Notes: a model not told the origin generated them from the sequence alone. DNA of 64,000 nucleotides from Candidatus Tenderia sp. (GCA_031416075.1 JANOSY010000088.1:9504-73503); one strand, 5' to 3'. Counted from the first letter of the stretch, positions 24,024 to 27,263 are shown. Made by a program: numbers and translations.

Positions 24024-24497
24024 TTATTTGCGGCGTTGACGAAAAAAGCCGGTCAACAACATCGAGCACTCTTGTTCGAGCACCCCCCCCAGCAGTTCGG
24101 CCTGATGGTTGTATTGCCCCGAATTCAATACGCTAAAGCGGCTGCCCGCTGCCCCCCCTTTAGGATCATAAGCGCCAAATACTACCCGCGCCACCCGTGC
24201 ATGAATAATCGCACCGGCACACATGGTGCATGGCTCGAGGGTAACATAGAGGGTAGTATCGATCAGACGATAGTTGGAGAGCGCCTGACCGGCGGCGCGT
24301 AACGCCTGCATCTCGGCATGGGCAGAAGGGTCGCTGTTGATGATCGGGCGGTTCCACCCCTCGGCGATCAGCTGGCCATGCCTGACCAGCAGCGCCCCCA
24401 CCGGCACCTCGCCTTCACGTCCGGCCTGCTCGGCAAGACGCAGCGCACGGCGCATCCAGTAGTGGTCCGGCGATTCAAGCGTGAGGACGTCAGCCAT
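24024..24497 (-). CDS. tadA: tRNA adenosine(34) deaminase TadA
   Basis: HYWMRRALRLAEQAGREGEVPVGALLV, HAEMQAL and LEPCTMCAGA. The start at MADVLT (24497) was chosen by comparison with E. coli TadA. The ORF extends to 24542. Confidence 0.9.
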   Translation of the reverse strand: MADVLTLESPDHYWMRRALRLAEQAGREGEVPVGALLVRHGQLIAEGWNRPIINSDPSAHAEMQALRAAGQALSNYRLIDTTLYVTLEPCTMCAGAIIHARVARVVFGAYDPKGGAAGSRFSVLNSGQYNHQAELLGGVLEQECSMLLTGFFRQRRK

Positions 24498-24825
24498 TAG
24501 AAACAGCTCCAATAACATTCCGGGCGGCCCGCACCAACTCATCCAACCCCTGTTTGTAACCCTTCATCTGCTGGACAAACGGCTCGTCAGGCACGGCATC
24601 AAGGGCGGCATCAAGGGCCTGGTTCACTGCCAGACGGGATGGCTCAATCCGCTCCCCTTTCAGCAGACGCATCACACAACCAGCAATGTGGCTATCGTAC
24701 GCCACCAGACCAGACTTCAGCCCGGCGGTGGCCACTGTCGCCCCGCTCGGAAAGGGGCGCTGCTGATGTATTCCAAACAGCCGCTCAAGCTCGCTCATAT
24801 CTGCATCTGCGCTAGAGGTCGCCAT
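24490..24825 (-). CDS. Hypothetical 111-aa protein, candidate immunity/antitoxin partner of the upstream 812-aa ORF
   Basis: Its ATG shares one base with the stop of the 812-aa ORF (TGATG). Its own stop lies 8 nt inside tadA. The product is acidic and looks helical, with no signal peptide. I do not recognise the family. Confidence 0.6.
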   Translation of the reverse strand: MATSSADADMSELERLFGIHQQRPFPSGATVATAGLKSGLVAYDSHIAGCVMRLLKGERIEPSRLAVNQALDAALDAVPDEPFVQQMKGYKQGLDELVRAARNVIGAVSNG

Positions 24826-27263
24826 CAGCTGTACCAGAACGAGTAGATGGCACCGGTTGGGGTGAAGGTGCCCCCCGGTGGACCCTGGATTTTTCTGCTG
24901 CTACGCCCCTCCTCATCTGTCCAGGCAAAATCACCGCCACCGCCCCAACAGGCCTGGGCATCCTGGGTATACTGCTCAACACTCTGTCCGGCCCCATGTT
25001 TGTTGTGATGGTAGAAGATGCTCTCCATGGCATTGGTAAATGAACCTTGGCTCCAGCCCCCCTTGGAGAGGTGGGCACCCACAAGAACCGGCAGATTTTT
25101 ACCCGGATGGGCCTGAATCAACCCCTTCAACACATCAATGCCATCACCATTACCCAAGTTCAATTGGTGATAGGCCGCAAGTACGGCGGTCGGGGTGGTG
25201 CTGCTATTGCTTACCATACTCCGAATCACTGCATCAGAGGCCAGACCCAACAAGGTGATCATGTCGGCCACCACATACCCCTTTGTCACCAGCCACTCCT
25301 CAAGCACATGTGCAGTAAAACCATCAGGGCGCGCAAGCAGGATTCTAAGCTGGGTAGAGTCGGCCTTGGTATACAGCTTCAACAGGGTTGCCGGATTGGG
25401 TTCATTAAAATCAACACGATCCAGCAGGAATACCAGATCGTCAGTGCTCCCTTTTTTGAGGAGTTTGGTGAGCTGTGCCTGGCTGACCTTGTCGCCAATC
25501 AGGCCGAGCAACGCCTCACTATCCTCAAGATTGCCTGCGCCGTGGGTAAGCGCCCAGGCGCTCATCTCCACGCCATGGGCATTACAGAAAGTAGTTAATT
25601 TTTTGACCGATACCTGTCCGACGGTGACGGCACGGTGCAACGCATCCAGGGCGTCGCCAAAAGGGAGCTGTGTATTCAAAAAATTGATGATCTCCGCTCC
25701 CTCTGCTGGCGCGGCGGCCATAGCGCTGGCCACCTTCAGGAGCTGGGGTGTCGCAACCCTGGCCGTAAGCTGATAACTGGCCACACTACGCGCTATCAGG
25801 GGGTCACAACCGGCCTGAATGGCAATCTCCAGCGCCTGTTGCAAGGTGGCAATGCCCGTGGCTACAGAGGTGAGTCCTATGGCCCACTGCGCCCGATCCC
25901 GCTGGTCAAGCCCTGTCAACTGCGCACTGGTTTGCAACGCCGCCAGGGCCTCGGCAACCGGCTCCCGGCCACTAGCCAGCTGTAACGTCCAGCCCGCAAG
26001 TTCAACCCCGAGGCTGACACTCCAGCTGACCATAAACCCGCTCATCTCATCATGGCGCTGCTTTTTAAGGCCCGGTTTCTGGCCATCGGCACCGGTAATC
26101 TTCGTCTCCTCCAGCAGAATATTCGCCTGCCCCTGAGTCCGGCCATCACTGTCAATTCTCCAGCCATTGACGCGGTCATCGTACGCCCCCTTCTTCTCCT
26201 TTTTTCCACGTACAGGCTTGCTGCCCGGATCAGCGGGAAGTCCGCTCTCCAGCCGCAGCTTCTCGGTCTGGGCATCCTGCTTGATCTTGTCCACCCCCTC
26301 CTGCGCGAGGGTATCGGACTGGCTTTCAGACCACCCCTCCAGCGCAAGGTCATAACCCCAAGTAGCCAACGTGGTCATACGCCCCGCAGCCGCGCTGATA
26401 TCAAATCCCTCTTCACTCAGCACCTGCTCAGAGACCACATCCGCCTTTGGATTGGCGCTGTAACTCGTCAGATACAGGGCAACATTAGCAGCGCTGGCAG
26501 CACTATTATGGACCAGTGGACAGGCACGATTCACAAGTGCGGCGGCACCACCGCCCGCCACCTGCAGCAGCTGTCCGAGTGCAACAAGCTGTGGCACCGC
26601 CTGATCAACCCCGCCACACCGCGTACCCAACAGCAGTACCAGCTCCGCCAATGACGGACTATTGTTGGCCGCAGTCAGGGCCGTGAGCGCGGGCTGAAGC
26701 GCGGCATGTGCAGGCACGGCCGCCACGGAGAGCTGCCCGCCAAGCTGGATGAGATTACGGATGTTGGCACCGAGGGTATCGCCATCGGTGCTGGGGGCGG
26801 TCAGGCAGTCGTTATCCAGCTGGGTTCGCAGGGCATTCCAGTTGCTCACCGCCGGGTTGCCCAACTCCAGCAGCAGGCGGGCGGGCCAATGTTGTTGTAG
26901 TGTACTGAAGTCAGTACTGGCCTGCTGCACAGCCACTTGACCTAGAATAGTGGTTTTTCGATTGGCAACGATCATCTGGGCGCGGGTCAAGTCGAGCGGG
27001 GTGCCACGACGCTGAAGGGGGGCCTCCCGTAGCTGCAAGGCGCTGCCAAAGGTACGGGAGAGCTGCTGGCGCTGGGCCACCATGCCAGGGCTGGCATGAA
27101 TACTGGCGGCCAACCGACGCTGGGCAGTGGCGGCGGGGCGATTATCAACAAACAGGGGGTTCGCTGATGGTACACGGGCATCCTCAGGCTCAGATGCCGG
27201 ATGGCGGTTCTGCCGCTCTGTTGATCTCTGTCCTGAATCCCGCATCCTGCGCCCACCATTCAT
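24825..27263 (-). CDS. Large hypothetical protein with polymorphic-toxin-like architecture
   Basis: 812-aa ORF in three parts: a basic, disordered N-terminus with FVDNRPAATAQRRL...SPGMVAQRQQL, a long Ala/Leu-rich helical middle, and a distinct C-terminal module of about 90 aa (IFYHHNKHGAGQSVEQY...GGTFTPTGAIYSFWYS). No signal peptide. Confidence 0.7.
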   Translation of the reverse strand: MNGGRRMRDSGQRSTERQNRHPASEPEDARVPSANPLFVDNRPAATAQRRLAASIHASPGMVAQRQQLSRTFGSALQLREAPLQRRGTPLDLTRAQMIVANRKTTILGQVAVQQASTDFSTLQQHWPARLLLELGNPAVSNWNALRTQLDNDCLTAPSTDGDTLGANIRNLIQLGGQLSVAAVPAHAALQPALTALTAANNSPSLAELVLLLGTRCGGVDQAVPQLVALGQLLQVAGGGAAALVNRACPLVHNSAASAANVALYLTSYSANPKADVVSEQVLSEEGFDISAAAGRMTTLATWGYDLALEGWSESQSDTLAQEGVDKIKQDAQTEKLRLESGLPADPGSKPVRGKKEKKGAYDDRVNGWRIDSDGRTQGQANILLEETKITGADGQKPGLKKQRHDEMSGFMVSWSVSLGVELAGWTLQLASGREPVAEALAALQTSAQLTGLDQRDRAQWAIGLTSVATGIATLQQALEIAIQAGCDPLIARSVASYQLTARVATPQLLKVASAMAAAPAEGAEIINFLNTQLPFGDALDALHRAVTVGQVSVKKLTTFCNAHGVEMSAWALTHGAGNLEDSEALLGLIGDKVSQAQLTKLLKKGSTDDLVFLLDRVDFNEPNPATLLKLYTKADSTQLRILLARPDGFTAHVLEEWLVTKGYVVADMITLLGLASDAVIRSMVSNSSTTPTAVLAAYHQLNLGNGDGIDVLKGLIQAHPGKNLPVLVGAHLSKGGWSQGSFTNAMESIFYHHNKHGAGQSVEQYTQDAQACWGGGGDFAWTDEEGRSSRKIQGPPGGTFTPTGAIYSFWYS

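Follow-up and report, generated by a model that had tools for sequence, protein, structure and literature searches.

Toxins associated with extracellular contractile injection systems (eCIS) carry an N-terminal DUF4157 domain, a linker that is sometimes longer than 1000 aa and a C-terminal toxin; other eCIS-associated toxins (EATs) adjoin DUF4157 genes, and some have immunity genes (Geller et al. 2021, PMC8213781). For Cgo1 and Cgo2, which AlgoCIS carries as cargo, a disordered N-terminal loading sequence is required, whereas DUF4157 is optional and dispensable for loading (10.64898/2026.05.27.728243). Members of the colicin-like BECR group have the topology pre-alpha, alpha, beta1-4 and an active-site pocket of conserved His and Lys/Arg on the pre-alpha helix and on beta4, and the characterised members are mostly tRNases (10.64898/2026.08.28.747851). 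Here we describe a pair of genes that lies between guaA and tadA in a 64,000-nucleotide stretch of Candidatus Tenderia sp. (GCA_031416075.1 JANOSY010000088.1:9504-73503), which as a whole is called the window. The pair encodes an 812-aa protein and a 111-aa protein, and an initial annotation had read the two as a toxin and its immunity protein. The best overall explanation of our results is a polymorphic-toxin/immunity module inserted at guaA-tadA, to which we give a probability of about 0.75.

The effector (toxin) gene lies on the minus strand at 24825..27263 and encodes 812 aa from its first ATG. If the ATG at 27245 is used, which is the start chosen by gene callers for the homologues P0001 and P0002, the product is 806 aa. 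The candidate immunity gene (24490..24825, minus strand, 111 aa) follows it directly. The two genes meet in a TGATG stop/start overlap (agcTGATGgcg; 24823..24827, minus strand), in which the toxin TGA and the immunity ATG have one base in common, and the overlap is called likewise in the loci L004, L006, L098 and L099. The downstream flank is tadA (tRNA adenosine deaminase; 24024..24497, minus strand), whose product in relatives matches dCMP_cyt_deam_1. The immunity TGA (24490-24492) and the tadA ATG (24495-24497) both fall in an 8-nt overlap of the two genes, ATGGCTGA (24490..24497, minus strand); gene calls in L004 and L099, each with a 157-aa product, back this tadA start. The upstream flank is guaA (GMP synthase; 27333..28904, minus strand), recognised from its translation and from Pfam matches on the products of relatives. 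It is separated from the toxin gene by a spacer (27264..27332, minus strand) of 69 nt to the first ATG and 87 nt to the second. The two ORFs, the shared base, the 8-nt overlap and the 69-nt spacer are all as the initial annotation had given them.

We compared the guaA-tadA interval among 80 metagenomic loci of tadA relatives. In at least 10 of these, guaA lies directly upstream of tadA, the two genes being co-oriented and 0-240 nt apart; the tight-junction loci are L017, L019, L028, L029, L031, L044, L051, L066, L078 and L089. The gap is 2839 nt, filled by the pair, in the window and in L004 and L007, the latter labelled "Gammaproteobacteria bacterium". The pair also occupies the same guaA-tadA site in the assemblies carrying P0001 (L098 and L099). 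Since the pair is found at guaA-tadA in four assemblies, the insertion predates their divergence. The homologue P0004, from a Rhizobacter metagenome-assembled genome, has a different context and adjoins a 2892-aa ORF. We conclude that an uncultured gammaproteobacterial lineage gained the pair by insertion at a guaA-tadA junction that was ancestrally tight. Comparison of this interval had been proposed as a check on whether the pair is variable, and it is: the pair is absent at this site in at least 10 more distant lineages and stands in other contexts elsewhere. Conservation of both genes at this site in all relatives, together with a known non-toxin function, had been named as the pattern that would speak against a toxin, and this is not what was found.

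No mobile-element signature was detected at the insert. Repeats were short and at chance level, none of them bracketed the insert, no integrase flanked it, and its GC content was not distinct from that of the flanks. Inserts unrelated to the pair occupy the guaA-tadA interval in L033, L037, L050, L062, L076, L091 and L092. By-eye reading of their translations suggested queE/queD-like genes, a LysE-type transporter, a multicopper oxidase and a luciferase-like monooxygenase, besides a 670-aa protein. We considered guaA-tadA as a toxin hotspot and rejected the idea, because the inserts of other lineages are ordinary metabolic genes; the junction is variable nonetheless.

The two ORFs are real genes. 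Comparison with L004 and L007 shows purifying selection on each, the ratio of nonsynonymous to synonymous substitution rates (dN/dS) being ~0.2 in the large gene and 0.3-0.4 in the small one. These values bear on the possibility that the large gene is a non-functional remnant, a 5′-truncated DUF4157 toxin gene, and that only an orphan immunity gene still matters. The ORF does begin about where DUF4157 ends in the alignment with the homologue P0003, and there is no apparatus and no DUF4157 gene nearby. However, at least four independent assemblies have the toxin ORF intact at full length, dN/dS (against the two related genomes) is ~0.2 over the gene as a whole and 0.12 in the toxin tip, and the catalytic motif described below is invariant. 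P0004, the Rhizobacter homologue, likewise lacks DUF4157 and lies in a different context, and DUF4157 is dispensable for loading in AlgoCIS. A remnant is therefore very improbable, the least probable of the explanations we weighed.

The 812-aa protein was modelled with AlphaFold2 from 12 aligned family members, with a mean predicted local distance difference test score (pLDDT) of 84.3. The model reproduces the three-part layout of the initial annotation. Residues 1-87 (27003..27263, minus strand) are a disordered hydrophilic N-terminal leader, rich in Arg, Ala, Ser and Gln, with pLDDT below 50. Residues 88-727 (25083..27002, minus strand) are an all-alpha body of ~30 helices with pLDDT ~90 up to residue ~725. 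Residues 728-812 (85 aa; 24828..25082, minus strand) are an alpha/beta module, the C-terminal toxin module, with a predicted colicin-like BECR fold and a putative RNase activity. The leader is a candidate loading or translocation signal, and the body presumably serves the effector as a linker or for targeting or translocation. The middle had been called "helical repeat-like"; the helical part holds in the AlphaFold2 model, whereas the repeat-like part has no support at the level of sequence. The one borderline similarity, of GVELAGWTLQLASGREPVAEALAAL (residues 419-443, ~25935-26009) to GVEMSAWALTHGAGNLEDSEALLGL (residues 564-588, ~25500-25574), has a score within the range of the shuffled controls; the two segments may go back to an ancient duplication inside the body.

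Few proteins resemble the large protein along its full length. Four full-length homologues were found among 5.8 billion clustered proteins, besides the more distant P0009. The whole protein had no usable match in Pfam, NCBIfam, PADLOC, PHROGs or PDB sequences, and tblastn against a plasmid collection gave no match. When residues 1-727 were scanned, no Pfam or NCBIfam domain was found, hence no recognised secretion or trafficking domain, and no solved structural relative was found for the all-alpha body. Matches to TetR_C_33 (E = 0.34) and to VapC26 and L,D-transpeptidase (E = 0.3-0.9) were dismissed as noise.

The last ~90 residues are the most conserved part of the large-protein family. A profile of the module (last ~95 residues) was used in a HMMER scan of 1.84 billion representatives at E <= 1e-3. 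The module is carried by 151 representative clusters (50% identity), in host proteins of 71 to 2316 aa. These counts come from the full HMMER scan; a word-indexed search with the domain alignment gave only 13 small proteins. The match reaches the last residue in 109 of 148 relatives and ends at most 3 residues from it in 136 of the 148. Upstream of the module, the 148 full-length proteins carry the Pfam domains RHS_repeat (19), PT-HINT (11), RHS (4), eCIS_core/DUF4157 (3), DUF6531 (3), DUF6443 (2) and PT-TG (1). Judged by this distribution among sequences, the module is a mobile C-terminal toxin-type domain that has been recombined onto different scaffolds. It is covered by no Pfam family and no NCBIfam model; it is new relative to these collections, and it may or may not equal one of BECR-Tox1 to BECR-Tox5 of the BECR classification preprint. 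One carrier has a phage-type integrase gene as a neighbour: in L097 (5988-7831), a 1167-aa module protein and a weak 111-aa partner are followed by a 161-aa ORF and the integrase gene. This neighbour suggests that some module copies sit on mobile elements.

The module consensus is W.kGTF....S..YH..KHG.G....QYT.DA..F...(variable)...G..GG.FT..GkIvTFWY. Across an alignment of 88 diverse sequences of the domain, H756 is invariant, W737, S748, H752, Y765, A769 and G804 are each conserved in at least 90%, and K755 is the majority residue. The candidate catalytic motif is intact in every family member. It comprises Y751-H752-H753-N754-K755-H756 (24996..25013, minus strand) and is assigned by conservation, by the alignment with the solved structure 8ey4_A and by its position on the pre-alpha helix, as in the colicin-like BECR group.

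The 111-aa protein has four close homologues. Every full-length family locus has a homologous small ORF directly downstream of the module: 97 aa in L001 (27 nt downstream), 106 aa in the Rhizobacter loci L006/L008 (adjoining the toxin end) and 98 aa in L009. Their identity in the final alignment is 39-59%. The family also stands behind the module on other scaffolds, namely an RHS toxin in L010 (overlapping), P0030 in L012 and a DUF6443-RHS toxin in L095 (34.7 bits). Six further loci (L001, L006/L008, L009, L010, L012 and L095) thus have an immunity homologue that overlaps the toxin gene or lies at most 27 nt from it, and the toxins concerned are of the DUF4157, DUF4157-less, RHS and DUF6443-RHS types. 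Identity is 28-59% in the alignment of L001, L006, L009, L010 and L012, and the family shares the positions L..F......P(F)P ... L...LV..DS.VAG.....L.G ... Y. The 111-aa protein had no match in Pfam, NCBIfam, PADLOC, PHROG or PDB sequences. Pfam gave nothing above threshold on nine immunity homologues, with no helix-turn-helix (HTH), ribbon-helix-helix (RHH) or other DNA-binding match, and the immunity profile had only chance-level matches to PDB sequences.

A family that travels with the module across scaffolds and taxa is, at the level of sequence, the signature of a cognate immunity protein. Three loci weigh against this. The module-bearing gene in L014 has no homologous downstream partner, and the immunity matches behind the 2316-aa RHS protein in L096 (11 bits) and behind the 1167-aa protein in L097 (8 bits) are weak. 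Nevertheless, the toxin/immunity reading of the initial annotation is supported by the mobile C-terminal domain, by a predicted BECR fold near CdiA-CT and by the small-protein family that follows the module across scaffolds. We consider it very likely that the pair is a toxin and its cognate immunity protein.

The module was also modelled with AlphaFold2 from an 88-sequence alignment (pLDDT 92.7). The model has a linker helix, helices H18-29 and H35-47 and then a four-stranded antiparallel sheet (E51-55, E61-65, E70-73 and E79-83). Its closest solved structure is the CdiA-CT toxin 8ey4. The next matches were a Salmonella toxin-antitoxin toxin (7vd7), CdiA-CT Kp342, colicin D and CdiA-CT NC101, and further ones were a P. 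aeruginosa CdiA tip, BrnT, colicin E5 and RelE. A Foldseek search with the C-terminal module had been proposed as a check; when run, it too put 8ey4_A first, with a probability of 0.99. In a profile-to-PDB sequence search, the stretch H..KHG...QY..A..F aligned to 8ey4_A with E = 0.076. The topology of the module (pre-alpha, alpha, beta1-4) and its His/Lys placement agree with the colicin-like BECR group. When sequence conservation was mapped to the model, the conserved H752, K755 and H756 were all on the pre-alpha helix, and the F/W of the last strand was conserved.

From this model, the tip can confidently be assigned a colicin-like BECR fold. We favour an RNase activity for it, a call based on fold-level similarity and motif position only, and the RNA target would probably be tRNA. 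One point tells against this call: the literature search found no paper describing the activity of 8ey4. The CdiA-CT toxin of E. coli O32:H37 (8ey4, with CdiI) and the BECR-fold CdiA-CT tRNases Kp342 (6cp9) and NC101 (5i4q) resemble the window protein in the shared H..KHG...QY..A..F stretch and in having a C-terminal toxin with a downstream immunity gene. They differ in that identity is 13-16% and in that both a two-partner-secretion/FHA scaffold and a VENN motif are absent from the window protein. Several related CdiA-CTs require EF-Tu. On the immunity side, the family has no detectable sequence relation to any PDB chain.

The BECR fold is also common to toxins of the RelE, BrnT and ParE type, which raises the possibility that the pair is never exported. 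The large protein would then sense a trigger inside the cell and its tip would stop the cell's own translation, as in a toxin-antitoxin, abortive-infection or addiction module. A preprint places BECR-Tox2 homologues both in polymorphic toxin loci and in anti-phage systems, and the pair is embedded in an essential-gene operon, where it overlaps tadA. However, RHS, PT-HINT and DUF4157 proteins are exported effectors, and it is at their extreme C-terminus that the tip stands. There were no PADLOC matches, and a size of 800 aa with a disordered leader is unlike a toxin-antitoxin system. Type II systems of the RelE/ParE/BrnT-like kind combine a small stand-alone toxin with a DNA-binding antitoxin, mostly encoded upstream, by which the operon is autoregulated. 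They thus differ further from the pair, in which the tip belongs to an 812-aa protein and the protective partner is encoded downstream and has no HTH, RHH or other DNA-binding match. An intracellular role is accordingly very unlikely, if marginally less so than a remnant.

For an exported toxin, the closest relatives point to a delivery route. P0003 (56% identical, in L001) and P0009 carry PF13699 (eCIS core, formerly DUF4157) with E = 1.7e-28 and 3.4e-8, respectively, and in both the domain is N-terminal to the region aligned with the window protein. In L009 (1-6689) the gene order is an AAA ATPase, a 654-aa DUF4157 protein, the 881-aa DUF4157-toxin P0009 and the 98-aa immunity homologue. This order looks like the 3′ toxin end of an eCIS operon, although the contig stops short of any structural genes. 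P0030 and its immunity gene in L012 come after a DUF4157 gene. The window protein itself resembles EATs in its disordered hydrophilic leader, long linker, small C-terminal toxin and immunity gene (present in some EATs). Through its relatives the likeness extends to DUF4157 in P0003 and P0009, the DUF4157 gene beside P0030 and the AAA ATPase gene before P0009. Since the closest relatives are DUF4157 proteins, one of them encoded after AAA ATPase and DUF4157 genes, eCIS loading via the leader is the most likely single route.

The N-termini of P0013, P0026, P0030, P0032, P0089 and P0108, which carry the same toxin module and no DUF4157, contain the motif LQRxxGNxAV. The leader of the window protein holds LSRTFGSAL (residues 67-75, 27039-27065), a degenerate copy of this motif, and P0004 has LQRLFGDAA. 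From its position in these sequences, LQRxxGNxAV may be a leader or loading motif.

Several results count against eCIS delivery. Within the 64-kb window there are no injection, secretion or lysis genes, and no sheath, tube, baseplate or AAA genes are among its large ORFs. All of its content is housekeeping or surface-related, including tig-clpPX-lon-ppiD, guaBA, xseA, pnp, infB, ABC transporters and a pair of giant OmpA/fn3 proteins. DUF4157 is absent both from the window protein and from the adjoining genes, and L001, which encodes the DUF4157-bearing P0003, has no eCIS genes within +/-10 kb. The window copy thus differs from EATs in lacking the domain, in having no eCIS genes within 64 kb and in lying inside a housekeeping operon. 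It is best described as an orphan, DUF4157-less eCIS-type cargo encoded away from any apparatus. We put delivery by eCIS forward tentatively, at slightly less than even odds, and both delivery of the type VI secretion system (T6SS) kind and soluble self-delivery are live alternatives.

Another contact-dependent machine, such as a T6SS acting on a cargo effector, would account for the scaffolds to which the tip is most often fused, RHS (19/148) and PT-HINT (11/148). These scaffolds typically travel with T6SS or related systems, and as polymorphic toxins they are said to fall within the framework of Zhang et al. 2012. The same module and immunity families occur together on RHS and DUF6443-RHS proteins in L010 and L095 and weakly in L096. 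DUF4157, too, is reported as "sometimes present in T6SS effectors" (PMC11297309). However, Pfam found no PAAR, VgrG, RHS, MIX, FIX or LXG domain in the window protein, which has no RHS/YD repeats and no PT-HINT and whose all-alpha body is unrelated to those scaffolds. There are no T6SS genes in the window, and the protein's own scaffold family is the DUF4157-associated one. We regard T6SS-type delivery as unlikely.

What varies among strains is not the toxin/immunity tip; it is the helical body, in its C-terminal half. A sharply bounded divergent (recombinant) tract spans residues ~325-725 (25090..26290, minus strand), as defined by nucleotide identity and the synonymous substitution rate (dS) against L004 and L007. 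Within the tract nucleotide identity is 69-83%, compared with 91-97% in most 150-nt windows on either side, and dS is 0.4-1.6, compared with 0.1-0.2 outside. In guaA, tadA (97% to both L004 and L007) and an HD-GYP regulator gene, identity is 95-97%. Over the first ~320 codons of the toxin gene it is 87-97%. It returns to 91-97% exactly at the start of the toxin module and stays there through the immunity gene. Both alleles of the tract are under purifying selection. The usual pattern is the reverse. The mosaic is compatible with a targeting or receptor-binding role of the body or with its fit to a delivery machine.

A variable C-terminal body half that ends at the toxin junction is also what would be expected if receptor modules were swapped in a bacteriocin that acts as a free, soluble protein, as colicins and S-type pyocins do. 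The leader would then recruit Ton/Tol, the body would bind a receptor, the tip would kill, and the toxin would carry the immunity protein with it out of the cell; an injection machine would not be required. The layout is colicin-like, with ~87 disordered residues, a long helical body, a BECR tip and an immunity gene directly downstream, and no delivery genes accompany this orphan locus within 64 kb. The tRNA anticodon nucleases colicin D and colicin E5 share this three-part layout, the downstream immunity gene and a BECR tip with His/Lys on its pre-alpha helix. However, in Pfam the protein matched none of the translocation or receptor domains of colicins or pyocins, and the gene is chromosomal, with no lysis gene evident and no LexA box (SOS box) in the window. 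Inspection of the leader only, with no formal test, identified no TonB or TolB box. The closest relatives moreover have DUF4157 or lie beside DUF4157/AAA genes, which ties the scaffold to injection systems. We judge a bacteriocin to be a little less likely still than T6SS-type delivery. The same low likelihood applies to the idea that a self-delivering soluble bacteriocin evolved from contractile-injection cargo, with the body as a new receptor-binding/translocation module and the swap of the tract as retargeting. If this were true, the cassette would be locked in the guaBA-tadA operon, with the essential tadA translated behind the immunity gene, and would be hard to lose.

Under the preferred explanation, an inserted polymorphic-toxin/immunity module, the large protein would be an orphan cargo that is loaded into an extracellular contractile injection system through its disordered leader. 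After delivery into a competitor cell, the tip would cleave RNA, most likely tRNA, and the His752/Lys755/His756 cluster, conserved on the pre-alpha helix, would be the catalyst. The 111-aa protein would be made from the same mRNA by stop/start coupling and would bind and block the tip in the producer. The pair would be expressed by read-through from guaBA, with tadA now downstream and its start overlapping the immunity stop.

The transcription signals were examined by a consensus scan. No terminator- or promoter-like site was found in the guaA spacer, inside the pair or before tadA. The initial annotation had seen no convincing terminator between guaA and the large ORF, and the scan agrees; nor does the spacer fold better than shuffled sequences (z = 0.42). 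guaB lies upstream of guaA at 28984-30444. The nearest upstream sigma-70-like promoter match is before guaB (30473..30502, minus strand; 10/12 hexamer matches, consensus match only) and is a candidate promoter of a guaB-guaA-toxin-immunity-tadA transcript. Co-transcription of the pair with guaBA and tadA would fit the lack of promoter- and terminator-like sites, and we infer translational coupling of toxin and immunity through the TGATG overlap.

The spacer between guaB and the DUF11 gene (30450-30930) is AT-rich, with a GC content of ~0.40-0.44 compared with ~0.57 around it. It holds all sigma-70-like matches of the 23.8-31 kb scan and a small palindrome at 30583-30595. Divergent from guaB, a surface-type cluster on the plus strand (30935-44711) encodes a DUF11 protein (185 aa), a 402-aa ORF without a Pfam match, a 2098-aa OmpA/CarboxypepD_reg/DUF11 protein and a 1872-aa fn3/Pur_ac_phosph_N protein; guaB has the same neighbours in L004 and L098. 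Rfam matches over the window were tRNAs only. Two tRNA clusters on the minus strand, at 8231-8400 (Asp-Val) and 15066-15730 (Leu-Lys-His-Arg-Pro), flank the tig-clpP-clpX-lon-ppiD block, and a tRNA-Met lies at 61538-61614.

Current concepts are not overturned by this locus, which belongs to a well-known kind of bacterial weapon. The toxin domain and immunity families have no Pfam or NCBIfam models and occur on RHS, PT-HINT and DUF4157 scaffolds. They are candidates for toxin/immunity catalogues, and the domain may represent a new BECR RNase specificity. With the body swapped and the tip and immunity protein kept, the function of the long toxin "linker" becomes experimentally approachable. As an example of a DUF4157-less orphan eCIS-type cargo fixed in a housekeeping operon, the pair would bear on how contractile-injection toxins are recruited and maintained away from their machines.

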